Translations under genes and position numbers: made by a program
Part shown: in pieces, positions 337 through 57,663 of the stretch
How the letters are laid out: each line of letters starts with the position of its first letter
Position numbering within the stretch: the first letter of the stretch is position 1
NCBI GenBank assembly: GCA_963807165.1
Contig: CAWDZM010000001.1
Span: forward strand, 641,471 to 705,470
From: an uncultured bacterium
GTDB lineage: Bacteria > Patescibacteriota > Minisyncoccia > UBA6257 > 2-01-FULL-56-20
Length of the DNA stretch: 64,000 nt
Direction of reading: 5' to 3'
Notes under the pieces: generated by a model
What the model was told of the DNA's origin: nothing
The model's input: the letters and a program-made list of their open reading frames with translations, nothing else
Databases searched by the model: none

Positions 337-558
337 AGCCGAGGTCCGAGTGCAAGCCGCGACCGAGGTGCTTTAAGAAATTAGGGAAAGACGGTTCTGT
401 GCGGTCTTCCGAGATGTCCGTTGGGCTTGCCAAATACGGCGCTGTTCATATTTCGATTCCTACCCGGGGCACGACCGTTCATAAAATATTCATACAAGTC
501 TCTGTATGATGAGTTGTAAATATTTAAAAAGGTCGGCAGCAAGATAATCAAAACTATC

Positions 559-711: not shown

Positions 712-784
712 TGCCGCGAGAGAGAATCGAACTCACTTAACTCGCTCTTCAGGCGAGGGCTTTACCATTAAGCTATCGCGGCAT
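712..784 (-). tRNA. tRNA-Phe (anticodon GAA)
   Basis: The reverse complement gives GCCGCGA / D-arm TAGCTTAATGGTAAAGC / anticodon stem-loop CTCGC-CTGAAGA-GCGAG / T-arm GTTCGATTC / 3' TCGCGGC-A. The cloverleaf is perfect and CCA is not encoded. Confidence 0.85.
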
Positions 785-1441
785 TTTTTGATGCAATAAT
801 GCATCATAGGTAAGAGCGCTTTCTATCTTATCCCGTTTTCTCCTCAAAAACAAGACTTTTGGATTATGATACATAGCGGTAATAATCTTTTTTGAATCAC
901 CCTTAGTATATTCAAGATTGAGAACGCCTGCGCCTTTGTGAACGAATCCATGTACTCCAAAGAAATCTGTATTTCTCTCTTTGAGCCAATAGATAAAATC
1001 TGGGCTTGCTGATGCGAAGGTCAACTTGAAGCCAAAGCTGCTAGGCCATCTTTTATCCCAAAATGTATAGAATGAGCCATCTCCATCAAAGAGACCACGC
1101 AAAAAATCAGAGAAAAACTCTTCGGGGACAGATATGCTTTGGATTGTTTTGGATTTCGCTGACGTAATTCCTATCTCATTGAGAAATTTATAAAATACTT
1201 TATCTCCGAAATTAACGGAATAATATTTTTTTTCGAGCGAACCACCATTACGGGTCTTGTAAACAGTGGTATCAATTTTTAGCGCTTGTTTGAAATGCTC
1301 GACCATATCAAGGTCTTTTGAGACGAAATAAATGTGCCGTCCATCTTTTGATAGGCAACCATCAGAAGCGATCAATCCAATTGCATAAGCGAGATCGCAA
1401 GACCATACTCGGCAAACTTTTTCTTGAAGTGCATAACGCAT
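773..1441 (-). CDS. LAGLIDADG homing endonuclease (two LAGLIDADG motifs, single-chain type)
   Basis: Motifs IGLIASDGCL and LRGLFDGDGSF are spaced about 100 aa apart. The last four codons (KMPR*) overlap the 5' acceptor stem of tRNA-Phe by 12 nt. Confidence 0.8.
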   Translation of the reverse strand: MRYALQEKVCRVWSCDLAYAIGLIASDGCLSKDGRHIYFVSKDLDMVEHFKQALKIDTTVYKTRNGGSLEKKYYSVNFGDKVFYKFLNEIGITSAKSKTIQSISVPEEFFSDFLRGLFDGDGSFYTFWDKRWPSSFGFKLTFASASPDFIYWLKERNTDFFGVHGFVHKGAGVLNLEYTKGDSKKIITAMYHNPKVLFLRRKRDKIESALTYDALLHQKMPR

Positions 1442-8021: not shown

Positions 8022-8501
8022 ATGTTTCTAAAAAAGAACGCCGCGGCAATAGCACTCCTTCTCATCATCGGCTCGTCCGTGGTGTTCCCGCTCGTTGCGT
8101 CGGCATATACGACGCCGAATATTTGGGGGAATCCACCTGGATTCTGGGGTCCACTCGTCTCTTGTACCGGCAATTACCTGACGGGAGCTGGGGCAACTTC
8201 TGGCGCGACCCCTTGTACCAGTCTTTGTGATCTTATCAATACATTTATCAACCTTATCTATTTTGCAATATCGATTGCCCTCTTTATTATCGCGCCGGTA
8301 GCGTTTTTATGCGGCGGCGTGATGATTATGATCGCTGGCGCAAACCCCGGGATGTTGGAATCCGGCAAAAAGGTGCTTACCGGGGTAGTTGTTGGCATCC
8401 TCATTGTTCTATGCTCTTATCTTCTTGTCGCAACCGCCCTTAATGTATTAGGTATCACTCGCGTCGGGGGTTTTGGTGGTGCGACATGCACATCGCATTA
8501 A
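8022..8501 (+). CDS. VirB2/TrbC-like 'T4SS pilin' family protein (paralog 1)
   Basis: Signal peptide plus two TM helices, with the conserved C..I..F and AG.P....K pattern shared with the paralogs at 10238, 10676 and 11128. Confidence 0.6.
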   Translation: MFLKKNAAAIALLLIIGSSVVFPLVASAYTTPNIWGNPPGFWGPLVSCTGNYLTGAGATSGATPCTSLCDLINTFINLIYFAISIALFIIAPVAFLCGGVMIMIAGANPGMLESGKKVLTGVVVGILIVLCSYLLVATALNVLGITRVGGFGGATCTSH

Positions 8502-8504
8502 AAC

Positions 8505-9380
8505 GTGATGAAAAAGATTTCATATTTTTTATTCTCCGCCATAGCTGCTCTCTTTTTATTAATCGCGCCGCTCGTCGCATTCGCACAGACTCAAATAATA
8601 ATTAGTACCAGCGTGCCTGGGACATATGGACCCACCACAGGTGCGGGAGGTCCAGGCTCATTCATCGCAAATTTTTACCAATTCGCATTAATGATCGGTG
8701 GGGTACTTGCCTTTGGAGTTATTGTGTATGGAGGAATACGATATATGGCATCTGCGGGAAATCCTTCCGGGCAAAGCGACGCGAAAGAATGGATTGAGGC
8801 AGCACTGTTGGGGTTGTTATTACTGGTGGGCGTCTACTTTATTCTCAGCGTCATTAATCCACAACTACTCAATCTTAATTTGCCATCGCTTACTCCGATC
8901 AGTATATCGAATATCACGCCAGTGGGTGGAGGAGGGACTAATAGCGGCGGCGGAGGAACCGGAGGTTTCTCATTGGGTGGCAGCGGATTACCTTCTAATA
9001 TTGCGGCCGCTGCGGCTGCAGCCCAAGCTAATAGCATGAGTTCAGCGAACGGGCCGGGCGGCGGCACCGTCGCATGCGCTTGGGCGGTGAATCAAGTTCT
9101 TTCTAGTACGGGTATTGCCCCGATCGACACCAATAACGTTCAGAGCATGGAAAATGCTTTGACGTCAGGCCGGGGGACGCTGGTTGACCCGTCGCAGGCG
9201 GTGGCTGGTGATATTGTTATTCAAGCGCAGGACGGTCATGTCGGCATTTGCATGAATAACGGCTGCACTCAAGTCATATCGAATTCATCATCACATGCGA
9301 CGTTCACCTGGGTAAGTAATACAAGTTTTTCTCCATCGTATAGCGGTGGTCCTGGTCGTATTTATCAAGTTAATAAATAA
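8505..9380 (+). CDS. T4SS-pilin-like N-terminal domain fused to a CHAP/NlpC-P60-like cysteine peptidase domain
   Basis: The N-terminus FALMIGGVLAFGVIVYGGIRYMASAGNPSGQSDAKEW matches the pilin paralogs. The C-terminus has CAWAVNQVL ... GDIVIQAQDGHVGIC (Cys/His CHAP signature), joined by a Gly-rich linker. Confidence 0.6.
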   Translation: MMKKISYFLFSAIAALFLLIAPLVAFAQTQIIISTSVPGTYGPTTGAGGPGSFIANFYQFALMIGGVLAFGVIVYGGIRYMASAGNPSGQSDAKEWIEAALLGLLLLVGVYFILSVINPQLLNLNLPSLTPISISNITPVGGGGTNSGGGGTGGFSLGGSGLPSNIAAAAAAAQANSMSSANGPGGGTVACAWAVNQVLSSTGIAPIDTNNVQSMENALTSGRGTLVDPSQAVAGDIVIQAQDGHVGICMNNGCTQVISNSSSHATFTWVSNTSFSPSYSGGPGRIYQVNK

Positions 9381-9384
9381 TAAT

Positions 9385-10218
9385 ATGAAAAAGTTTATCT
9401 GGATTATTGTCGCGGTGGTCGTCGTCAGCTTGATCGCATGGGCTATCTGGGCTGTTATGGTTACAAAAAATTCGCAGTCAACCAATTCAATTACATCACT
9501 GCCGCCAGTGCAGAGTCAGACTCAAAGCGGGGCGTCGGTTCCCGTCCAAAGCATTCCGCGTCCGCAAGATCCAGTGGTTGCTAAAAATTTTCTTAGCGAT
9601 ATACAAAATGCGGATCAGATTGCTCTTGGCGGTACCGTTATCGCATCTCCATATGCACTACAGATCTGGGGTGATGTAAACAAAGGAGGGGAGGCATTAT
9701 TGGAACAATCATCATCAACGGGATGGAAATTAATTTCTCTTGGCGGCGGCGAATGGAGTGTCCTTGCGCTTGTACAGGAAGGCGTGCCAGTGGCAGCGGC
9801 AGAACAATTGGTCGCAGGCTTAACGAGCGGGTCATCAACGCCATCCATTGCTCCACCGATCGCTATCCCGCCCGGAAACACGATCAGTATAGGAACATCA
9901 AACGGAGTTGTGACGATGAATAATTTTTATAACCATGCGGATTATATCTCGCAAGACCAGCAGGCGGTGGTAGTTCAAGGATCCTCGACTTATAGTATTG
10001 TTTACAACATTCCAGATAGCAGCTTTACTTTAACCATCATCGGTTCTCCATTTGATATCGTGCGTCAAGTGATGGAAACTGTATTTTTGAATTCACTGGG
10101 GATATCACAACAAGATGCTTGTAAGTTGCTTGTATCCGAAAACGTCCCGGGCGACTCTTCTAATCAATATGCAGGCCAAACATTCCGGTTGAGCTTCTGC
10201 AGCTCTGCGGTACAGTAA
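9385..10218 (+). CDS. membrane-anchored hypothetical protein
   Basis: MKKFIWIIVAVVVVSLIAW TM anchor. No recognisable domain. Confidence 0.5.
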   Translation: MKKFIWIIVAVVVVSLIAWAIWAVMVTKNSQSTNSITSLPPVQSQTQSGASVPVQSIPRPQDPVVAKNFLSDIQNADQIALGGTVIASPYALQIWGDVNKGGEALLEQSSSTGWKLISLGGGEWSVLALVQEGVPVAAAEQLVAGLTSGSSTPSIAPPIAIPPGNTISIGTSNGVVTMNNFYNHADYISQDQQAVVVQGSSTYSIVYNIPDSSFTLTIIGSPFDIVRQVMETVFLNSLGISQQDACKLLVSENVPGDSSNQYAGQTFRLSFCSSAVQ

Positions 10219-10237
10219 TACGACCTTATTTGCTATA

Positions 10238-10600
10238 ATGAATACAATGAAAAAGATGGTCGGAAGAATAGGGCTTATGGGAGGCATCGCCGCCTTTTTT
10301 CTCTTTCTAGAAACATCCTTCGTAAAAGCGCAGACCCTCACCGATCCGCTCGGTGGCAAGGAAACTTTTATTAGTGTGGCAAATGATATCGCGCATTTTC
10401 TTCTCTACGACATTGCTATCCCGCTTTCGGTCATTATGGTGCTGGTCGGCGCTTTTCAATTTATAACGGGGGGAGGGGATCCGGCGAAGATCTCCGAGGC
10501 AAGGAAAACAATATTATATGCGGCAATTGGGCTTGGGGTCGCCCTTATCGCAGGAGGGATCACCTCGCTCATCAAAAGCATTCTTCCAAACGGTTCATAA
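10238..10600 (+). CDS. VirB2/TrbC-like T4SS pilin family protein (paralog 2)
   Basis: FITGGGDPAKISEARKTILYAAIGLGVALIAGG aligns with paralogs 3 and 4. Confidence 0.6.
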   Translation: MNTMKKMVGRIGLMGGIAAFFLFLETSFVKAQTLTDPLGGKETFISVANDIAHFLLYDIAIPLSVIMVLVGAFQFITGGGDPAKISEARKTILYAAIGLGVALIAGGITSLIKSILPNGS

Positions 10601-10675
10601 TAAACGTGGTATTTTAAGGCAAAATATGAGACACTGGATAGTAATAAAGGGTCGAAACAAATCTTTTAACTGATT

Positions 10676-11059
10676 ATGAGCACTATCAAAAAGTTTTTTG
10701 TGTCATCGCCGGTTTTTGGAACGTTAGCATTATGGGGAATACACGCCTCGGTGGTTTTGGCGCAAACCTCCGGTGCTACGTCTCCTATCACCGATGAAAC
10801 AGACCTTCAGCAGCTCATGTGTAATATCATTGATTGGTTTTTCTGGGTCATCATTATTATCTCGGTGATTATGGTGCTGGTTGCAGCATTCGATTACATC
10901 ACTGCCGGGGATGATACCGAAAAGATCTCGCTTGGGCGCAAACGCCTGACGTACGCAGCGGTAGGGATTGCTGTTGCGTTATTGGCAGCCGGATTCCCTA
11001 AAATTGTTGCAAGCGTTTTCCCAAATACGGTAAACGCGGAAGTTTCTTGCCTGGGTTAA
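10676..11059 (+). CDS. VirB2/TrbC-like T4SS pilin family protein (paralog 3)
   Basis: YITAGDDTEKISLGRKRLTYAAVGIAVALLAAG. A conserved AAAGGGTCGAAAC motif lies upstream. Confidence 0.6.
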   Translation: MSTIKKFFVSSPVFGTLALWGIHASVVLAQTSGATSPITDETDLQQLMCNIIDWFFWVIIIISVIMVLVAAFDYITAGDDTEKISLGRKRLTYAAVGIAVALLAAGFPKIVASVFPNTVNAEVSCLG

Positions 11060-11127
11060 GCGCGGTGTGCTAACATTCTTAAGTACCTAAGAAAGGTCGA
11101 AAAACCCTCTTAACAATTCATTAGATC

Positions 11128-11535
11128 ATGAAAAAATTAATCAATGTAGCAAAGGAATTCAGCCCCTCGATCATCGCGTTAGTGATGGCAGTGCCGGCAT
11201 TTGCCTTTGCGCAGCTTAGCGCGCCGCCGAGCGGTGGCGGAGTAACTCCGGTCAGTGTTCCGCAGGGGAACATCAGTAGTTTGTCGGGAGTCCTTCAGCT
11301 CCTTTGTAACGTTTTCGGTTGGGCGTTCTACTTCCTCATCGTGCTTGCCGTCATCTTTGTTCTTTACGCGGCATTCAAGTATCTCACCGCAGCCGGTGAG
11401 CCGGAGAAAGGTAAAAGAAGCCGGGTCGGTCTTGCTCTATGCGGCAATCGCCGTTGGCGTTGCGCTTTTGGCAAAAGCAGTCCCGCTCGTCGTGGGAAGC
11501 TTCCTTGGCGCAGGCACCGTGGGTTCCTGCTAATA
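11128..11535 (+). pseudogene. T4SS pilin paralog 4, interrupted by a 1-nt frameshift near 11405-11425
   Basis: Frame 1 gives ..YLTAAGEPEKG*. The adjacent frame (ORF 11255..11533) continues ..VKEAGSVLLYAAIAVGVALLAKAV, which matches the paralog C-termini. Confidence 0.5.
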
Positions 11536-11663
11536 GCGAAATCGTCTTTAGAGAAGTTCAAAAAGCCCCGCAAGGGGTTTTTTGGTTTTGCGCAAAAAAT
11601 TTAAAAGATAGAAAAATCCCCCAACAACCGAAGCTGCTGGGGGATAAATTACTGCAATGCGCT

Positions 11664-15473: not shown

Positions 15474-15479
15474 ATAAAA

Positions 15480-16217
15480 TCACTCCTCCTTCCTCCTCGC
15501 ACCGTGAAACGCCTGGTGTACTTCACGCAACTGCTTGTTGGTGAGGTGTGTGTAGACCTGCGTGGTGGAGATGTTTGCATGGCCAAGGAGCTCCTGCACA
15601 GAGCGCAGGTCGGCGCCATTCACGAGGAGGTCGGTGGCGAAACTGTGGCGGAGTAAGTGCGCGTGGATGTGACGTCGGGATTCCCGCCTGCGTGGCGCGG
15701 GCGGCGACAAGGCGCTGGACGGCGCGCGGCGTGATGGGGCCGATCATTTGCCGACGCGGTCGAGACTGACGAACAACTTTTCTTCTGCATCGCCGCGCTG
15801 CGCCATATACGCTTTGACCGCCTCGCGCGCCGTGTCGGAGATGAAGACCACGCGCAGTTTATCGCCCTTGCCGCGCACGGAGAGTTCGCCACGCTTGAGG
15901 TCGATGCCGCGCGGCAAGGCGCAGAGCTCTGCCAGGCGCAGGCCGGTGGAGAAAAACATTTCGAGTACGGCTTTGTCGCGCAGGTCGCGGAGTGAGTCGC
16001 CCTTCGGAGCGGCGAGCAGTCGCTCAAGGTCGCCGTATTCGAGCGTGTCGATCTGCCTCCCGGGTATTTTCGGGAGCTCTATTTTGTCCGCCGAAAGTGC
16101 TTTGATATCCCGCCGCGCCATATATTTTAAAAAGTTGCGCAAGGCGATCGCGTAATATCCTTGCGTCATGCGCTTCATTTCGCGCCGCGCGAGCGCAACG
16201 CGGAATTCGCGCACCAC
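15480..16217 (-). pseudogene. XerC/XerD-family tyrosine recombinase interrupted by two compensating frameshifts (~15745 and ~15660-15710)
   Basis: The N-terminal ORF (157 aa, SAM-like core-binding domain) is followed by a frame-0 segment [26 protein letters not shown]. The reading then returns to the original frame for [38 protein letters not shown], which carries the catalytic Tyr region. Confidence 0.65.
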
Positions 16218-20788: not shown

Positions 20789-20822
20789 GGAGCCGGCTTA
20801 TCTATGCTAAAATAGAAGTAAT

Positions 20823-21251
20823 ATGGATAATCCTTTAAGTAAAGTATTAGCGAAGGCTCCGCCGCCACCGCCGTTGGAGGTGAAGATCCGCACGATGCGA
20901 TCAGATATCGACTCGATGATGAAGAGCGGGGGAGGGGCGCCGTCATTTCAGAATGTGGCGGTCGCAGGACTTTCTCTCGAAGGGCATCAGGCGCCGACAT
21001 CTTCTCCGACGCCGATGCCCAATCTTGGTTCGTTCTCTACGCCTAGCGCGATAGTGACGACCCCGATTGCGCCGAGCGTCAGCGTTCCAGCTTCATCCAA
21101 CGCGCCACTTACTGCCACACCCATTGGCCATGAAGTTGCGCCGGAGGCCAGCTCGGGGAATAGTATTATGCCCCTCGTGATCGTGGTGATCGTAGCTATC
21201 ATCGCTATCGGCGTGGTGGGATATTTCGCCTACACCATTTTTGCAAAATAA
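20823..21251 (+). CDS. hypothetical protein with C-terminal TM anchor
   Basis: Pro/Ser-rich with a C-terminal hydrophobic helix. A terminator follows immediately. Confidence 0.5.
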   Translation: MDNPLSKVLAKAPPPPPLEVKIRTMRSDIDSMMKSGGGAPSFQNVAVAGLSLEGHQAPTSSPTPMPNLGSFSTPSAIVTTPIAPSVSVPASSNAPLTATPIGHEVAPEASSGNSIMPLVIVVIVAIIAIGVVGYFAYTIFAK

Positions 21252-34636: not shown

Positions 34637-35114
34637 AAGGAGGTAACCTTTCGCCTGGCGGCACGTTCTATTATGTGCCGTTAGACGAAAGGTTATGGAG
34701 GAGGATAAAATACTTTTCCACACCTTTTTCCCAAACGGCAGCGTAGTATATGCGGTACAATAGTAGAAAGGTTCGGTGTGAGGCTGAACCAAAGAATATA
34801 TTGAGCGGTCGTTATTTTTTTAGCGGCAGCAAAATCTATTTTATTCAGCCTCGCCACAAAGCGAGCTTTTTCTTTTATAGCGGTTCCCTTACAAAGATAT
34901 TAACCCCGTTTTCGTCGCTCTCTTCTATTTGATCGGTCGTCGCTTTCCCTCACGAGGCGGCCGCTCGAGCGAATAGAGTGAAGTGCCGGAAACGGTCCTG
35001 AAAAAATAGAAAATAAAAAAACGTGATTTGGTGCACGGAAAGGTCGACGGCTGAAAGGGTCCATAACGGATCAACAGGTCGATACCAATAATTAAAGAAA
35101 TAATATAAGTAAAA

Positions 35115-38100
35115 ATGAATAAAAATAAATTGGTTTCATCTGTTCTCGCTGTTGCCACTTTGGTGGTAATGGTCGGAACGCCTCTGGTGAACGCAAGCGC
35201 GCAGACCACGTCGAGCCTTCAGGCTCAGATCGCGGCATTGCTCGCCCAGATCCAGACCCTCCAGAGCCAATTGAATGCTTCTGGCACCACGACCACTTCG
35301 GTCGGCGCAAACACCTATAACTTTACCAGCGACCTCACCGTTGGTTCTACAGGTTCTGCGGTAATGGCACTCCAGCAGTTTTTGATTGGACAGGGAGATC
35401 TCGTTCTCGCTACGCCGACCCAGTACTTCGGTGCGCTTACCCAAGCTGCACTCGCAAAGTTCCAGGCCGCGCATGGCATCACTCCTTCTGTCGGTTACTT
35501 CGGTCCTAAGACGCGCGCTTTCGTTAACTCGATGAGCACGTCCACGACCACCACGACGACCACCACGACGGGCACGATTGCTCCGGTTGGTGCGCCGTTG
35601 TCTATCTCACTCGATGCGCAGACCCCGGGTTCCTCGAACGTAGCGGCTGGCGCGGTGAACACTCCGGTCTTGAAGCTTGACTTCACGGCTGGTGCAACGC
35701 CCGTCACCATCACGAACTTGGTGTTGACCCGTTCAGGTCTTTCGCAGGATTCCGACTTGGATAACGTCTACCTCTAGCAGTGCGCGGTACCAAGTTGGCA
35801 TCAAACCTCGGCTTCAACAATGGGGCGATCACCTTCTCGAATGGCGCAGGACTCTTTACGGTTCCGGCGAATTCCACGCAGGTCATCACCGTCACTGTTG
35901 ATGTCGATAATGGTGGAATTGGCAAAAACAATGTCACTGTTGCAGCGGATTCCGGCCATATCTTCCAGATTGGCTTGGCTTCCGCGAGCAATGTAACCGG
36001 CGGCACTTTCACGGGCAACTTCCCGTTGGAGAGCGCGCAGTTCACGATCGCATCCGTCACAAATTTGGCGACGACTTACCGTCTCCGGCCCTCAGACTTC
36101 TTCGACGACCGTGAATGCGGGCCAGTTGGATGATCTCGTTGGTCAGTTCACCGTTCAGGCCGGTAATAACCCGGTCAAGGTGACACAGTTAAACTTCACG
36201 AATGTCGGAAGCGTAACGCCAAGCTACCTCCAGAACGTCAAATTGATGGATGGCTCAACCCAGCTTGGTGCGACCATCACCTCTCTTGGCAGCAACAACA
36301 TTGCGACGTTCGACCTTTCTGGCGCGCCGCTCATGTTGACCTCCGGCCAGTCGGCGGTGTTGTCGCTCTATGCGGACATCACGGGTGGCGTAAATCGCAA
36401 CTTCCAGTTCTCTATCCAGCAGTCGTCTGACATTCAGGCGGAGGATACGACCTATGGGGTTGGCATTGGTGCGACCCTCCAGACAGGCCTTTCGTTCCCG
36501 ATTGATTTCTCCTGTGGTTACCATCAGTAATGGCGGCGTAGTGGCATCGAGGGATGCGAACACCCCGACCACCTACGCGGTGGCAGGGAATACCAATCAG
36601 GTGCTCGGCGATGTTTGATGTCTTGGCTTCCGGCGACAGCATCAAGTTCAATGAAATGGACTTCTGGCTACACGCTTGAACAATGGCGACACGATCAATA
36701 ACTTCCGCGTTGTTGATGACCAGGGTGCTCAGATCGGCACAACGGTCAATACGACCGCTGGTGCGACAGCAACAATGTTAACGGTATCGTTGCTGAAGGC
36801 AGCGGCAGTTTGAACTACATCATTCCGGCCAACACGACTCGTGTCTTGACGGTCTATGGTGATTTGCCTTCGAATGCTTCTGGAACGGTAACGTGTGACA
36901 TTCGGTGAACCGAGTGGCACTTTCGGCTCCAACAATGGTACTTCTGCGGAGAGCTACACGACCTATGCGAACGCGACGACGACGGCTGTTTCTGGAAACA
37001 CCCTCCAGATCTTGAACTCGAATACGAATCTTCTCATAAGCGAGAACTACGGTTTGGGTTCTCCGGTGTCTGCAGCGGCGGTGCGCCCAGCATGTAGAGA
37101 TTGGATCGTACACGCTTACGGCGGGACAGGTGAATGGTGTTAATTTGACGGGCGTTACCATCTCGGCAACGAGCACCCTTCCGGTTAACTACCTGACAAA
37201 CCTTGAGGTGTTCGATGGTTCTACCCAGATCGGCCAGACCTATTCTACGGTAGTCGCTGGAAATGCGCTATAACTTCAACACCAATTCCCCGATTGCGAT
37301 TCCGGCGAATGGCTCCGTCACGCTCGATGTTTACGCAAACATTAGCTCGAACGTAAGCGCTCAGACGGTATCTCGGCGACGACTTTGTCGGCGGTAAATG
37401 CTTCGACCCAGGCGGGTAATGCCGATAACGGTCCAGCTCGACGGCAGGCCAGAATCTTTCCTTCAACACGGGAGGTACGCTGAGTGGCTCGCTCTCGGCA
37501 GGTACGTCGCAGGCATCCTAGCTTGGCATGGGTATCACGGGCGTGAATGTCGCCCAGTACCAGTTCGTCGCTGACAATAACGGCAGCGAGACCCTGACGA
37601 AATTGGTGATTCTCGACAGCTACAACCACGGCGAACACCTCGACTGCTTGGCGCTCAAGCCTTCGGATCTCATCAACTATCGGTTGACGGATTCGGCAGG
37701 CAATGTGCTTAGCACGGCGAGTGAGGATCGAACGGTACGTTGACCTTCAACTTGACTGGCTTGCCATTCCTGTGAATGGAACGCAGTACGTGAATTTGGT
37801 GGCGGATACGAATTCATACCCGTATGCGACATCAGGCGGATACGCATGCGTATGATCTTGACGAGCTACCAGTACACCAACGCTACGCAGTCGAGACGAC
37901 GAGCACTCTGGCCAACGGCATGGGTAACCTCTTCACGGTTTACCAGACAACGCTTGGTGTGGCTGGTACTTCGGTTGGTCAACGCCCGAACAACATCTCC
38001 GGTGTTGAGCAACATCGTGGGTGAGTTCAACTTCACGGCTGGCAGTGGCAACATCGAACCCGAAAGTGTTGAACAAGGTTACCTTGTCGAACCGGTGGTT

Positions 38101-38530
38101 CGTTGATCCAGGCAAGCACGATCGCAGACCCTCGGCCTCTATGATGCCTCGGCTCCGTCGGTGCTCTTGGCTTCTTCAACAGCAACCTCAGACGATACAG
38201 CATGACGTTCACCTTTGCGAATCTGAACCGAACCAGTGGACAATTCCGTACAGCTCTACAAAGACATTACTCGTAGAAACGTTGTCTGTCGCCGACTGGC
38301 GGCGCTTTGGGCGGTTCGCTGACGAATGGCAACAGGTGGCAGTTATCAGGTGTTCTCACTGGTTAACAGTGGACTGATGGTCCGTCGTGGCACGGCGATG
38401 GTACGACGACGCTGGGTGCGAATACTTACGTTCGGCATTGGCTTAGCCCGTCTATCTCGATCGCCGGTTCCGAGCCGAACATCACTGACTTGTCCAACTA
38501 GTCTGGTATCCCTCCGATCCGATCGCTTGT
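35115..38530 (+). pseudogene. large secreted cell-surface protein: signal peptide + PG_binding_1 domain + Thr-run + ~100-aa repeats, shattered by >10 frameshifts/stops
   Basis: The intact N-terminus (35115-35777) has TFTSDLTVGSTGSAVMALQQFLIGQGDL ... GYFGPKTRAFV. Downstream, the reading frame switches repeatedly (track ORFs 35780, 36111, 36895, 37528, 37846, 38021 ...), yet repeat motifs such as DGSTQLG/DGSTQIG persist. A terminator follows at 38547. Confidence 0.55.
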
Positions 38531-38546
38531 GACGATCGGATAGGAA

Positions 38547-38580
38547 AAACAAAACAGCCCTTCGGGGCTGTTTTGTTTTG
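38547..38580 (+). terminator. rho-independent terminator (AAAACAGCCCttcgGGGCTGTTTTGTTTTG)
   Basis: Perfect stem plus U-run. Confidence 0.55.
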
Positions 38581-39395
38581 GGGAGGGGCGCATATTTTTA
38601 TCCGCACGGAGGGAATTTAAGATCTATTTAATGTCGCGAGGAGTATCGTGGGAGGGATGCAAGATTCCTCGCGATACAAAAAATTAATGATTATATCGAA
38701 GAATTTTTTCCTATGGCACAAGGAGAAGTAATCAGCACTCCAGAGGAAGAAATTTTATTTACTCCAAGATGTAAAAATATCGCGCAGAACGTTCAAACAT
38801 ATAGTCGAGCGGCGCTCTATAAACGATGGATTTGGAGTGAGCTGGTATAAAAGACTTACTAAGAAGTGCGCAAGATATAGTGGACAATCCGGAGGCAGTT
38901 AATTAGAAATACGAATCTAGTAAAATATCCTGAGAGAAGTATGATTGGGAGGTTGGATTCAGGAATAGAAGCGGCGATAATGGTGGTCGTGGATTGATCT
39001 CTTGAGGGAGAAAAAAAGTTATAACAATATTTCTGAAAGAAAGGCGTCAATTTTTGGCTTAATAAAAAAAGAGCCCATAGCTTTGTATCTGGAGGGGCGG
39101 CATCAATACAATAGCGAGTGTGTTGATTTCCCTCATCGAAAACGCACCTTGCGATACGCCCCCGCAGTGGAAGCCTTTCTGCCGTCAGATACAAAATTAT
39201 GAGTTGTTTACCATTTTAATCTACCTCGTCGCTATTCTTCCGTCAAATTTCTTTTAATCTTTATTTAATAACCTGCCCGCCGTCTGCTTGCCACCCATTT
39301 ACCACCCCCTTGTGCAGAAAACCCTTGATTTTGCTATACTAAAGGGGAGCTAAAATACAAAAGGTCGAGAAAAGAAACTAAATTTATCATCAATC

Positions 39396-39671
39396 ATGAA
39401 TAAAAAAGGATTAGTGGAAGCGGTCATGAAGGCAACGGGCATTGAAACGAAGGCAGCAACGGAGCGTGCGGTAGATGCGGTATTTGATACGATCGTAAAG
39501 ACCATGGGCCGCGGCGAGGAAGTCGCGATCACGGGCTTTGGAACGTTCCGCGTTGCCAAGCGCGCTGCGCGTGAAGGCCGCAACCCCAAGACCGGCGAAA
39601 AGATCCAGATCAAGGCTTCGATCAAGCCGAAGTTCCGCGCCGGCAAGCTTCTCAAAGAAGCAGTGCTGTAA
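39396..39671 (+). CDS. hup: DNA-binding protein HU
   Basis: 91 aa with the GFGTFRV arm motif and an extended -10 (TGcTATACT) upstream. Confidence 0.9.
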   Translation: MNKKGLVEAVMKATGIETKAATERAVDAVFDTIVKTMGRGEEVAITGFGTFRVAKRAAREGRNPKTGEKIQIKASIKPKFRAGKLLKEAVL

Positions 39672-39798
39672 TTGCTGAAAAAGGATCCTTCTTCAGTATC
39701 TTAAGATGAAAAGCACCGCGTGAGGCGGTGTTTTTCATATCTAAAATATTTTTTGAAAATTTAAAGATAGTTAATGAGGGGTTGCTATAATTGCGAGC

Positions 39799-40212
39799 AT
39801 GCAAAACCCAAATAAAGAGGACCGTGCGTTATCCGAATTTATAGAAAGCCACGTATTTTTTATTAGGGGGATGAGGGTAGTGCTGAGTACGCATCTTGCT
39901 AACTTGTATGAAATTGAGCCTCGCGTCCTGATCCAGGCTGTAAAAAGAAACAAGGGTCGTTTCCCGCACTCTTCCTTATTTCAGCTTAATGCAATTGAAT
40001 TCAGCGCTTTAAAATCACAAATTGTGATTTTAAAACATAATAGAATTCGACGTTCTTTGCCATATGCCTTTACTGAGCAGGGTGTAGTGATCCTTGCGAG
40101 TGTTTTGCGAAGCAGTCGTGCAATCGCTATGAATGCCGCGATTATAAGGAATTTTGTCCGACCACATCGCCCCTATTTAAAGGCACGCATCATTGCTCCG
40201 GGGTTGTGGTAA
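39799..40212 (+). CDS. ORF6N-domain protein (phage antirepressor-type N-terminal domain)
   Basis: IRG.RV.L...LA.LY..E...L.QAVKRN..RFP ... LPYAFTEQGV..L.SVLRS.RAI..N pattern. Confidence 0.7.
   Translation: MQNPNKEDRALSEFIESHVFFIRGMRVVLSTHLANLYEIEPRVLIQAVKRNKGRFPHSSLFQLNAIEFSALKSQIVILKHNRIRRSLPYAFTEQGVVILASVLRSSRAIAMNAAIIRNFVRPHRPYLKARIIAPGLW
40008..40034. repeat. 27-bp perfect palindrome TTTAAAATCACAAaTTGTGATTTTAAA embedded in the ORF6N coding sequence
   Basis: A second copy is at 53095-53127 inside the ORF6N remnant. Confidence 0.5.
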
Positions 40213-53178: not shown

Positions 53179-53252
53179 ATATGCCTCAATTTTATAATTA
53201 ATATTTAATCCTCCCATTCACCTTACTTCTCTTGATGTGGTAATATTATCTT

Positions 53253-54326
53253 ATGGATGATTTCAAACAGCAGCTCAACGATCTTTTGACGACGACGGCG
53301 AAGCAGAATGCGTCGGACCTTCACCTTGCGGTGGGGCGCAAGCCGACGTTGCGTATTGATGGCGTGCTGATCCCACTGGAGAAAGAGCCGGTTATGACGC
53401 CGGAGTCGGCGGAGGGAATCATCTCGCAGCTGCTCACGCCGGAGCAAAAGACGAAGCTCATCACTCAACGGCAGGTGGACTTCGCATACAGCTTGGAGGA
53501 CAAGGCACGGTTCCGCGTGAACGTTTATTTCCAGCGCGGCTATTTGGCGGCGGCGCTTCGGCTCATCCCTACGCGCATCAAGACGATCGAAGAGTTGAAT
53601 CTTCCGCCGCTTTTGCACGACTTCGCACAGCTTTCCCAGGGCTTCGTGCTGGTGGTGGGCCCCGCCGGACACGGAAAATCTTCCACGCTTGCGGCGATGG
53701 TGGATGAGATCAACCACACGCGCACTGATCACATTATCACGATCGAGGATCCGGTGGAATATCTTTTTACGCAGGACAAGTGCATCGTCTCGCAGCGCGA
53801 GGTGGGCAGTGATGCCACGAGCTTTCACTCGGCGCTCCGCACCGTTCTGCGCCAGGATCCGGACGTCGTGATGATCGGCGAGATGCGCGATGCGGTCTCC
53901 ATCGGCACGGCCATGACCGCTTCCGAAACCGGGCACTTGGTTGTTTCAACATTGCATACCAATTCCGCGTCGCAGACGATCGATCGTATCATCGACTCAT
54001 TCCCCGCAGAACAGCAGGGACAGGTCACGTCACAGCTCGCCGCGACACTTGTCGCCATCGTTTCGATCCGCTTGCTCCCGCGCATTTCCGGCGGCCGTAT
54101 TCCGGCGATGGAGATCATGATCGTCAACCCGGCTATCCGCAATCTTATCCGCGAGCGCAAAACGTATCAGATCGATCTCGTGATCGAAACGAGCTTGCAG
54201 GAGGGGATGGTCACGCTCAACCGCTCACTGGTTAATTTGATCAAGAATAAAGAGATCACATTAGAAAACGGCGAGTTGTATTCACTCAATCCGTCGGAGC
54301 TACGCATTCTATTAGAAAGAACATAA
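53253..54326 (+). CDS. pilT: twitching-motility ATPase PilT
   Basis: Walker A GPAGHGKSST and ~350 aa length. No N-terminal GspE-N domain. Confidence 0.9.
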   Translation: MDDFKQQLNDLLTTTAKQNASDLHLAVGRKPTLRIDGVLIPLEKEPVMTPESAEGIISQLLTPEQKTKLITQRQVDFAYSLEDKARFRVNVYFQRGYLAAALRLIPTRIKTIEELNLPPLLHDFAQLSQGFVLVVGPAGHGKSSTLAAMVDEINHTRTDHIITIEDPVEYLFTQDKCIVSQREVGSDATSFHSALRTVLRQDPDVVMIGEMRDAVSIGTAMTASETGHLVVSTLHTNSASQTIDRIIDSFPAEQQGQVTSQLAATLVAIVSIRLLPRISGGRIPAMEIMIVNPAIRNLIRERKTYQIDLVIETSLQEGMVTLNRSLVNLIKNKEITLENGELYSLNPSELRILLERT

Positions 54327-55565: not shown

Positions 55566-55627
55566 ATGCTATAATAGAAAGGTCACTCTATTATTCAAAA
55601 GGTCGAGAAAGATTTCTGTCTAAAAAA

Positions 55628-57009: not shown

Positions 57010-57051
57010 TTTTCTATCGCAGCGTCCGCGAGGAAATGATAGAATACTCCT

Positions 57052-57663
57052 ATGGGAAACGGCGCAGACAAAAAAGGTTTCACGTTAGTAGAGATGCTCA
57101 TCGTCCTCGCGATCACCGCGTTGCTTTCGGGGCTTGCCATCGTTTATACGCATGTCGGGCAGAATCAGATCGCGCTCTCGATCGAGGAATCAAAGATCGC
57201 CCAGCTTATTCTCCAGGCGCGGGAGCTTTCCGTCGCGACATATAGCACGGATAATGCCACGTGCGCCTACGGCGTGGCATTCAATTACGCGAGTTCCAGC
57301 TATTCGCTCTTTGAATACAATGCCGCAGTGAGCTTGCCATCCTACCCTGGCCGGCCGATATGTCCATCACTCGCAAGCACGACCGCCGCAGGCGCGGTCG
57401 ATCCAAGCGTAATGGATATTTATGAGAGCGGAAGCTGGCAGGTCCATACCGCGCAGGGCGTCGTGTTGGATAATGACGGTGCCGCGAGCGACACTATTCA
57501 GTACGTGCTCTTTTATCCGCCTGATCCGTTCACTGCTATCGATCTTTCTAGTAATGACACCTTCCAATATCCCGCGCCAACGGCGTACGTCTATTTAAGT
57601 ACCACGGATGGAAGCGATTCACGCACGATCACCGTCAACTCCGCAGGGCAAGTAAGTCTATAG
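57052..57663 (+). CDS. minor pilin / pseudopilin (prepilin N-terminus)
   Basis: KKGFTLVEMLIVLAITALL. Confidence 0.7.
   Translation: MGNGADKKGFTLVEMLIVLAITALLSGLAIVYTHVGQNQIALSIEESKIAQLILQARELSVATYSTDNATCAYGVAFNYASSSYSLFEYNAAVSLPSYPGRPICPSLASTTAAGAVDPSVMDIYESGSWQVHTAQGVVLDNDGAASDTIQYVLFYPPDPFTAIDLSSNDTFQYPAPTAYVYLSTTDGSDSRTITVNSAGQVSL

Follow-up and report, generated by a model that had tools for sequence, protein, structure and literature searches.

A leader box in Shine-Dalgarno-less mRNAs of Paceibacteria, apparently an undescribed expression signal

Patescibacteria account for much of bacterial diversity, and only a few of them are cultivated. To our knowledge, next to nothing has been learned so far about the control of their gene expression. 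The window studied here, that is, the whole stretch of 64,000 nucleotides, is DNA from this phylum (Parcubacteria/Paceibacteria). Its features of interest are the hup gene, which encodes the protein HU, together with five other genes that carry a very similar short word in front of their start codons (Table 1). These genes code for a small membrane protein, two T4SS pilins, a large surface protein and the major type IV pilin. An intrinsic terminator-like hairpin is found 3' of hup, at about 39705-39735. In a reading made from the sequence only, a near-identical motif had been pointed out at these six sites. All six are present, within 1-2 nt of the positions given at that time, and the distances from GGTCG to the ATG (28, 26, 33, 73, 33 and 27 nt, with the sites taken in coordinate order) are also as that reading had them. 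Pfam agrees with the gene identities that it assigned at all six sites, the families being DUF5670, T4SS_pilin (twice), Bac_DNA_binding, N_methyl and PG_binding_1.

Table 1. Boxes, promoter elements and associated features in the window.
Feature	Position	Strand	Remarks
Box AAAGGTCGG (8-mer 528-535)	528-536	+	31 nt 5' of ATG 559; 50-aa DUF5670 membrane protein
Variant box AAAGGGTCGAAAC	10646-10658	+	30 nt 5' of ATG 10676; T4SS pilin
Extended -10 TGCTAACAT	11068-11076	+	15 nt upstream of the box of the second T4SS pilin
Box AAAGGTCGA (8-mer 11092-11099)	11092-11100	+	36 nt 5' of ATG 11128; second T4SS pilin
Structured leader of the surface-protein gene (box 1, hairpin, box 2)	35039-35084	+	ATG 35115; PG_binding_1 gene
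Box 1 of this leader, AAAGGTCGACG	35039-35049	+	
Variable hairpin of this leader	35058-35072	+	
Box 2 of this leader, GGTCGATA	35077-35084	+	
Extended -10 TGCTATACT of hup	39332-39340	+	Conserved as TGnTAnAmT in most of 80 loci
Box AAAGGTCGA of the hup leader (8-mer 39360-39367)	39360-39368	+	36 nt 5' of ATG 39396
Spacer between box and start codon of hup	39369-39395	+	A/U-rich, G-poor, without SD
hup (HU, 91 aa)	39396-39671	+	Pfam Bac_DNA_binding
Extended -10 TGCTATAAT of the major pilin gene	55567-55575	+	19-22 nt 5' of the box (range shared with hup)
Box AAAGGTCGA (8-mer 55598-55605)	55598-55606	+	30 nt 5' of ATG 55628; major type IV pilin

The sites at 528, 11092, 35039, 39360 and 55598 have in common the exact 8-mer AAAGGTCG followed by a purine. 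The sixth site, at 10646, carries the variant AAAGGGTCG with one extra G, and a -10-like TAGTAAT (10639-10645) abuts it. Counted on both strands, the exact 8-mer occurs eight times in the window against 2.38 expected, a number that none of 100 dinucleotide shuffles reached. Five of these eight copies are in sense orientation shortly before start codons and coincide with sites already pointed out, while the remaining three are antisense and within genes. The GGTCG core (163 copies against 144.5 expected) and the one-mismatch set of AAAGGTCG (63 against 59.7) are barely enriched in the window. These two looser definitions, as well as AAGGTCGA, were dropped, as they show little or no enrichment there. 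Thus, the motif first described stands in its exact form, which is significant, and loses its looser GGTCG core: the signal is carried by the exact 8-mer only.

The same distinction is seen in 1.3 Mb of related loci. There, the exact word gives 104 sense matches at most 200 nt upstream of genes, whereas each of the 24 words with one mismatch gives at most 11 upstream-sense matches, and no enrichment is seen for the two wobble-type changes GAAGGTCG and AAAGGTTG (A to G at position 1; C to U at position 7). When hup is set aside, 48 intergenic matches are upstream of genes in sense orientation versus 2 otherwise. In-gene counts of the word equal background, and its frequency upstream of genes is far above background. 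A DNA uptake sequence, a KOPS and a methylation motif were considered for such a word and rejected by reasoning, the word being not enriched in genes and sense-upstream only.

Conservation was followed in gene families. A search of GTDB genomes with the HU protein gave 80 loci, all of them from Patescibacteria of the Parcubacteria/Paceibacteria group. In a further HU homology search, none of the best 120 matches had an identity below 79%. Of 81 hup loci, 80 have the exact 8-mer in front of the gene, with HU identity going down to 79%; the single exception is a locus cut by a contig end. The bases that flank the box vary freely across these loci. The major pilin provided an independent test, for which 79 metagenome loci were fetched by means of PilC, encoded just before the major pilin gene. 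The exact 8-mer was found at the pilin gene directly after pilC in 44-46 independent loci, with PilC identities ranging from 84% to about 50%. The variant AAAGGGTCGAAA is found at the major pilin in three loci (L082, L092 and L094). It is the same variant as that at position 10646 of the window, and in this sub-class of four the -10 directly abuts it. Upstream of the gene for the surface protein of about 1150 aa, the box occurs in about 30 loci. Single instances precede the genes for ATP synthase subunit c (atpE), an SPW-repeat membrane protein, a DUF5666 secreted protein and other small envelope proteins.

The six sites had been taken for a leader element shared by highly expressed structural genes, and a comparison with related genomes had been suggested. 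The invariance of the box in front of hup and of the major pilin gene, as well as its strict orientation, supports this view of a shared leader element for abundant structural proteins. The targets would mostly be proteins present in many copies (HU, major pilins, an S-layer-like surface protein, ATP synthase subunit c and small envelope proteins), judging by the nature of the same families in other bacteria, and we infer that the corresponding genes are highly expressed. Not all related genes use the box. In the same clusters, minor pilins are leaderless whereas the major pilin bears the box, and, of the four T4SS pilin paralogues in the window, two likewise lack a leader. Moreover, the major pilin itself is leaderless in more distant lineages. 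This implies that the box is dispensable for the major pilin gene and that leaderless and boxed architectures interchange in evolution.

The background against which the box has to be seen is a largely SD-less one. In the window and in the 1.3 Mb of loci, most genes have no Shine-Dalgarno (SD) sequence and have a -10 element, often of the extended form TGnTAnAAT, placed 6-9 nt before the ATG; of the strong extended -10 boxes with an ORF behind them, 78 show this leaderless spacing. Canonical SD words are present but serve a minority of genes; an ORF start comes after 21% of the copies of AAGGAGG, compared with about 12.7% for GGAGG and similar words. The boxed genes form an unusual class, with a leader of about 40-55 nt and no SD. 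In hup and pilin loci, 12-24 nt usually separate the -10 from the box. From the start of the box to the ATG, the distance is 26-43 nt in 65 of the 80 hup loci and in most pilin loci, and 30-41 nt in other gene families. The distance to the ATG is therefore constrained, and it is too large for an SD, as the sequence-only reading had remarked. That reading had also put the box downstream of a -10. This position holds, but the TAAAAT and TATTAT boxes that it chose are weaker ones, the conserved element being the extended -10 located 19-22 nt upstream. Between the extended -10 of the major pilin gene and its box, a degenerate copy of the box, AAAGGTCA, is found at 55578-55585.

At the seventh base after the -10, which corresponds to the position of the A of the ATG in leaderless genes, G is enriched. 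This enrichment suggests that the transcript probably starts there. The box would then begin 5-17 nt into the RNA, and we infer that it is transcribed in every case. The spacer which follows the box is rich in A and U (A 0.44, U 0.30, C 0.15, G 0.11) and essentially unstructured, with a mean folding energy of -0.6 kcal/mol. SD-like 4-mers are found in the spacers of only 3 of 78 hup leaders and of none of 41 pilin leaders, and AUG is depleted (10 occurrences versus 22 expected). The idea of a special accessibility of the box was considered and dropped: in folded hup leaders, the probability that the box is unpaired equals the leader average.

Some leaders depart from the usual spacing. Fourteen hup leaders in which the box is 58-122 nt from the ATG (the cut-off being set at more than about 50 nt) were folded. 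One hairpin is found in all 14 (mean z = -2.3; z below -2 in nine of them), and the unpaired remainder is about 20 nt, the same as in short leaders. On the other side of the box, six of ten leaders with a long gap between -10 and box have a stable hairpin (z < -3), and 6-15 unpaired nt remain. As these hairpins restore the spacing, a site read on double-stranded DNA would gain nothing from them. It could be, however, that the hairpin inserts simply reflect inserted DNA, such as palindromic elements, and not selection for spacing.

A second set of data comes from the leader of the surface-protein gene, in which AAAGGTCGACG, the variable hairpin, GGTCGATA, an A-rich tract and the ATG follow one another. 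In the RNAalifold consensus, GUCGAC of the first box (35043-48) pairs with GUCGAU of the second (35078-83). The resulting helix, which takes in the 3' half of the box, runs on into covarying pairs and an inner hairpin. Compensatory changes are seen in 7 of the 14 pairs, and paired cells reach 90.7% versus 81% in shuffles. The covariation score is 0.293 versus 0.127 in shuffled alignments; none of 500 shuffles reaches 0.293, and slid controls stay at or below 0.146. Most likely, the box acts in RNA.

The interpretation that we favor, with a probability of about 0.45, thus slightly below even, is that the box is a cis element of the 5' UTR, read as RNA by a trans-acting factor which recruits or holds the ribosome for SD-independent initiation. 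The word AAAGGUCG(R) would mark the minority of Paceibacteria mRNAs that have a leader but no SD. A protein, or a protein part of the small ribosomal subunit, is the most likely candidate for its sequence-specific reader. Indeed, the exclusion of wobble variants, together with invariance over deep divergence, argues for a protein reader or a ribosomal component rather than for an evolving sRNA. An initiating small subunit covers the mRNA up to about -35. The factor would sit just beyond this limit of the mRNA path in the ribosome. From the box, some 20-28 nt of A/U-rich RNA without structure lead on to the AUG. Protection of the 5' end may be an additional function of the factor. The geometry of the box is fixed relative to both the 5' end and the AUG. 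Since the spacing towards the -10 is constrained to about the same degree as that towards the ATG, a role in translation is inseparable from a role at the 5' end, for instance in stability. Two observations agree poorly with this model. In the sub-class where the -10 abuts the variant box, transcription would start inside the box, and in the surface-protein leader base pairing involves half of the box, which suits a reader of single-stranded RNA poorly. A bolder form of the proposal is that the box defines a third bacterial initiation route, beside the SD-led and the leaderless ones, in which a dedicated factor or a lineage-specific ribosomal component reads AAAGGUCG about 30 nt before the AUG, loads SD-less leaders and is reserved for the most abundant proteins; in this form, the proposal is doubtful.

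The link with the 5' end raises the possibility that the box has no direct role at the start codon. It would then be a stabiliser or a 5'-end-defining site, where a bound protein or ribosome blocks 5'-to-3' decay of the RNase J type or defines a processed 5' end. The proximity of the box to the predicted 5' end, about 5-17 nt, is kept by the upstream hairpin inserts, its targets are plausibly long-lived, abundant mRNAs, and in the surface-protein leader it makes up the foot of a stem-loop close to the 5' end, an arrangement that is classic for stabilisers. We nevertheless consider this explanation unlikely, as the distance to the ATG is also constrained, and restored by hairpins, and a pure stabiliser has no need of that. 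Two known systems can be compared with it. STAB-SD is an SD-like 5' stabiliser of Bacillus (cryIIIA type; B. subtilis). It is located close to the 5' end, at a large distance from the start codon. The box, by its predicted transcript start, would share this location, but it lacks the extended complementarity to 16S rRNA: with a STAB-SD-type pairing, AAAGG alone fits the canonical anti-SD and the invariant UCG is left unexplained. When bound to the chloroplast atpH 5' UTR, the helical-repeat RNA-binding protein PPR10 acts as a block to RNase J, sets the 5' end and activates translation (PMC3799425, PMC3326301). Here, an atpE gene bears the box, which, like a PPR10 site, would be a sequence-specific, single-stranded 5'-UTR site in SD-poor mRNAs with a subunit-c gene among the targets. 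However, PPR10 sites are about 17-25 nt long and serve one gene each (PMC3799425, PMC3326301), whereas in Paceibacteria a single 8-mer is common to many genes.

If the box works by bringing the ribosome to the mRNA through a bound factor, as we favor, it has to be set beside the known elements of initiation. Like an SD, it is a short, purine-containing word of the leader, and its AAAGG can pair with CCUUU of 16S rRNA. Unlike an SD, it is located 26-43 nt from the ATG instead of 5-10 nt, has no GGAGG-like substitutes and contains an invariant UCG that mismatches the canonical anti-SD, the latter being deduced from the enrichment of AAGGAGG before ORF starts. Enhancers bound by S1 are degenerate A/U-rich tracts that cooperate with an SD, and T4 gene 38 has a split ribosome-binding site in which a hairpin keeps the effective distance. 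The box resembles both in its location (about -20 to -40) and in its unstructured, A/U-rich spacer, and it resembles the gene 38 site further in that spacer hairpins preserve the effective distance. An S1-dependent enhancer was rejected all the same: the position fits, but an invariant 8-mer containing GGUCG, with no SD following it, rules this out. A CsrA/RsmA site was also rejected, since the core is GGU and not GGA, the box is not in a hairpin loop in hup leaders and it is 30 nt from the start. Rfam gave no match at any box site (gathering score or E ≤ 5 for the whole window; E ≤ 10 for 34900-35200), and a full-text literature search retrieved no paper on a Patescibacteria leader motif or on the box word.

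Leadered mRNAs without SD are known in Haloferax volcanii (PMC3986360), and leaderless-rich genome classes have been defined with GeneMarkS-2 (PMC6028130). As in Paceibacteria, transcripts there are mostly leaderless, and the few leaders have no SD (PMC3986360, PMC6028130). The leaders of Paceibacteria have a conserved word, and we know of no such word reported for leaders of Haloferax or of leaderless-rich genomes. In its presumed function, the box is most like an upstream translational enhancer, a STAB-SD stabiliser or a PPR10 site, and it does not match the features that define any of them. A distinct initiation pathway may eventually prove to be involved.

A reader made of RNA also deserves attention. 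An exact word of 8-9 nt common to unrelated mRNAs is typical of seed targets, and the box might pair with CGACCUUU, in the seed of an sRNA or in an exposed rRNA segment, so that a regulon is activated or repressed. Such a trans pairing could be imitated, or competed with, by the cis pairing between the two boxes of the surface-protein leader, and invariance in deep lineages would suit a highly constrained partner such as rRNA. What makes this explanation improbable is that wobble-compatible variants are barred and that about 2 Mb of related loci contain no conserved intergenic complement, whether CGACCTTT or a partner of the GGTCGATA type. In addition, the anti-SD tail is apparently canonical, as judged by the AAGGAGG frequencies (21% versus about 12.7%), and it matches AAAGG only. 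None of the fetched loci contains rRNA; the match in locus L065 turned out to be a perfect extended SD, seen from the opposite strand. P0151, a homologue of the LAGLIDADG gene of the window, is free-standing, with no rRNA nearby. Mimicry of tRNA had been envisaged from the resemblance of AAGGUCG to the junction of variable loop and T-stem. Among 155 tRNA genes, AAGGTCG is found in seven tRNA-Gly(GCC) and one tRNA-Leu; no initiator tRNA was among those found, and the idea was dropped.

Reading at the DNA level, by a global transcription factor for which the box would be an operator immediately 3' of the promoter, or by an elongation factor recognizing the non-template strand in the manner of ops/RfaH, is very improbable. 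The box is asymmetric, single and always in sense orientation, its distance to the promoter is broken by hairpin inserts of up to about 100 nt while the geometry relative to the ATG is kept, and RNA-structure covariation surrounds it. On the other hand, the box abuts the -10 in one sub-class, and may thus be incompletely transcribed there; the surface-protein region contains 2-4 GGTCGA boxes, reminiscent of multiple operators, and a DeoR-type HTH gene adjoins the surface-protein gene. RfaH is a NusG paralogue that acts at ops, whose consensus GGCGGTAGnnTG lies in the leaders of long operons, and RfaH-controlled operons also have no SD and encode surface structures. In both cases, an invariant, orientation-specific word is found in SD-less leaders of genes for pili or surface structures. 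However, the box has no sequence similarity to GGCGGTAGnnTG. The distance at which ops is found in long operons varies, and its reading takes place on the non-template DNA in a pause, whereas the targets of the box are short, monocistronic genes (150-3600 nt) that have no need of antitermination, with a geometry tied to the ATG and to the 5' end. An ops/RfaH site was rejected on these grounds.

That the box is a misread ordinary signal, namely the SD of an ORF that is longer than annotated, or the -35 element of a leaderless promoter, is largely refuted: AAAGG is SD-like, and the -36 to -29 location is where the -35 of a leaderless promoter is expected, but an in-frame start 4-13 nt after AAAGG exists in just 2 of 78 hup and 2 of 38 pilin leaders, in-frame stops interrupt 34 of 78 and 13 of 38 of them, respectively, leader lengths are not multiples of 3, TANNNT occurs 4-10 nt before the ATG in 16 of 64 short hup leaders against 178 of 458 (39%) other genes, and the conserved extended -10 is upstream of the box. 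Both versions were rejected, the first for want of an alternative in-frame start at SD spacing and the second from the position of the -10. The SD-like use of the same 8-mer does exist elsewhere. In a scan of viral contigs for a promoter followed by the box, 9 of 120 matches have the Paceibacteria spacing, and in many of the copies on viral contigs AAAGG is an ordinary SD 2-10 nt before the ATG, these being phages of other hosts.

With the box taken, as we prefer, for a leader element read in RNA, several uses can be considered. It is a simple, searchable signal, invariant across the sampled Paceibacteria, that marks a defined set of genes, and it makes the translation of SD-less leadered mRNAs in mostly leaderless organisms testable. 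The box RNA, for example AAAGGUCGAGAAAAG, can serve as bait in RNA pull-downs. The box is also a ready-made expression element for the emerging genetic systems of this group, and it would predict which surface proteins and pilins are abundant in uncultivated cells. Finally, knowledge of the leader bears on annotation. Several database entries for HU are 105-145 aa long instead of 91 aa. In these entries, the start was probably called too far upstream, and the position of the leader corrects such calls.

Throughout the window, a -10 box is found 6-9 nt ahead of the ATG, without a Shine-Dalgarno (SD) motif, in the majority of genes, and genes located behind short intergenic gaps show the same pattern (examples in the table below). 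These -10 boxes are often of the extended form TGnTAnAAT. It appears that the bulk of the genes of this organism are carried on leaderless mRNAs. The gene directly following hup, which encodes an ORF6N-domain protein, has a textbook leaderless promoter consisting of TTGCTATAAT, 7 nt and the ATG; the ORF6N family is antirepressor-like and phage-associated. In the relative locus L065, a perfect 13-nt extended SD (AAGGAGGTGATCC; 15474-15490, minus strand) precedes the ATG of a GC-rich gene, whereas the rest of that genome is SD-poor. This gene is possibly of foreign origin.

Positions of the features discussed (window coordinates)
Feature	Position	Strand	Remark
-10 box near ATG, no SD (examples)	39780-39801, 57036-57054, 53236-53255, 20805-20825		
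ORF6N-domain protein gene	39799-40212		directly after hup
T4SS pilin cluster	8022-11604		
T4SS pilin paralogues	8022, 10238		look leaderless
T4SS pilin paralogue	10676		variant box
T4SS pilin paralogue	11128		exact box
Large surface-protein gene	35115-38600		frames 35115-35777, 35780-36133, 36111-36530, others
Surface-protein leader	35043-35083		
tRNA gene and LAGLIDADG_3 homing-endonuclease gene	712-782 and 773-1441	-	

Apparently leaderless and box-containing starts occur side by side in a single cluster that holds four T4SS pilin paralogues. Their starts are of different types (apparently leaderless, variant box with an extra G, or the exact 8-mer), which suggests that expression levels differ among the paralogues. 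Among relatives, the major pilin gene is leaderless and devoid of the box in eight loci (L085, L098, L128, L135, L136, L138, L139 and L157), lineages in which this gene has lost the box. There, its start is laid out as TGnTAnAmT, about 6 nt, then the ATG. AAAGGT separates the -10 from the ATG in L085, which looks like the result of a leader deletion; L139 and L157 still carry a relic, AAAGGTCA, upstream of the -10. A gene of about 357 aa that starts with MATPQEKLNELL or MPTPQEKLNELL lies close to pilC in L033, L136, L137, L139, L142 and L157. Its leader, located downstream of an extended -10, is 76-111 nt long, repeat-rich and without the box; it is a second, different leader type.

Long hup leaders (L031, L032, L033, L039, L060, L065, L078) contain short tandem repeats, such as GAGACAT/GAGACAA, ATACGAA or CTAAAAGCTAA, that fold into long hairpins and for which slippage or small mobile palindromes are possible sources. 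Several HU database entries of the clade (P0001, P0002, P0006, P0008, P0009 and others) measure 105-145 aa rather than 91 aa, probably because gene callers placed the start upstream, within the leader.

The leader of the large surface-protein gene and the homologous leaders in L001-L074 correspond to a structured RNA supported by covariation, in which an outer helix (GUCGAC/GUCGAU) encloses a variable inner hairpin. No match to this leader was found in Rfam, and it is in its own right a candidate new cis-regulatory RNA. Further GGTCGA-like boxes surround it, with GGGTCGAA upstream and (A/G)TCGAAA close to the ATG. The gene itself is broken into several frames in the window, while relatives have a single intact ORF of 1090-1277 aa; the split reflects either a pseudogene or sequencing or assembly frameshifts.

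Among the viral contigs (L166-L285), many phage contigs of other hosts carry the same 8-mer 2-10 nt before an ATG, downstream of TGCTATAAT, where it acts as a normal ribosome-binding site of the AAAGG type. The spacing resembles that of Paceibacteria, or the AAAGGTCGACG form is present, in a few AT-rich contigs (L193, L203, L257, L268, L174/L269), which might represent phages of Paceibacteria or misfiled host DNA.

Finally, the LAGLIDADG_3 homing-endonuclease gene ends within or against a tRNA gene. A homologue, P0151 from Niyogibacteria, is likewise free-standing, outside any rRNA intron.
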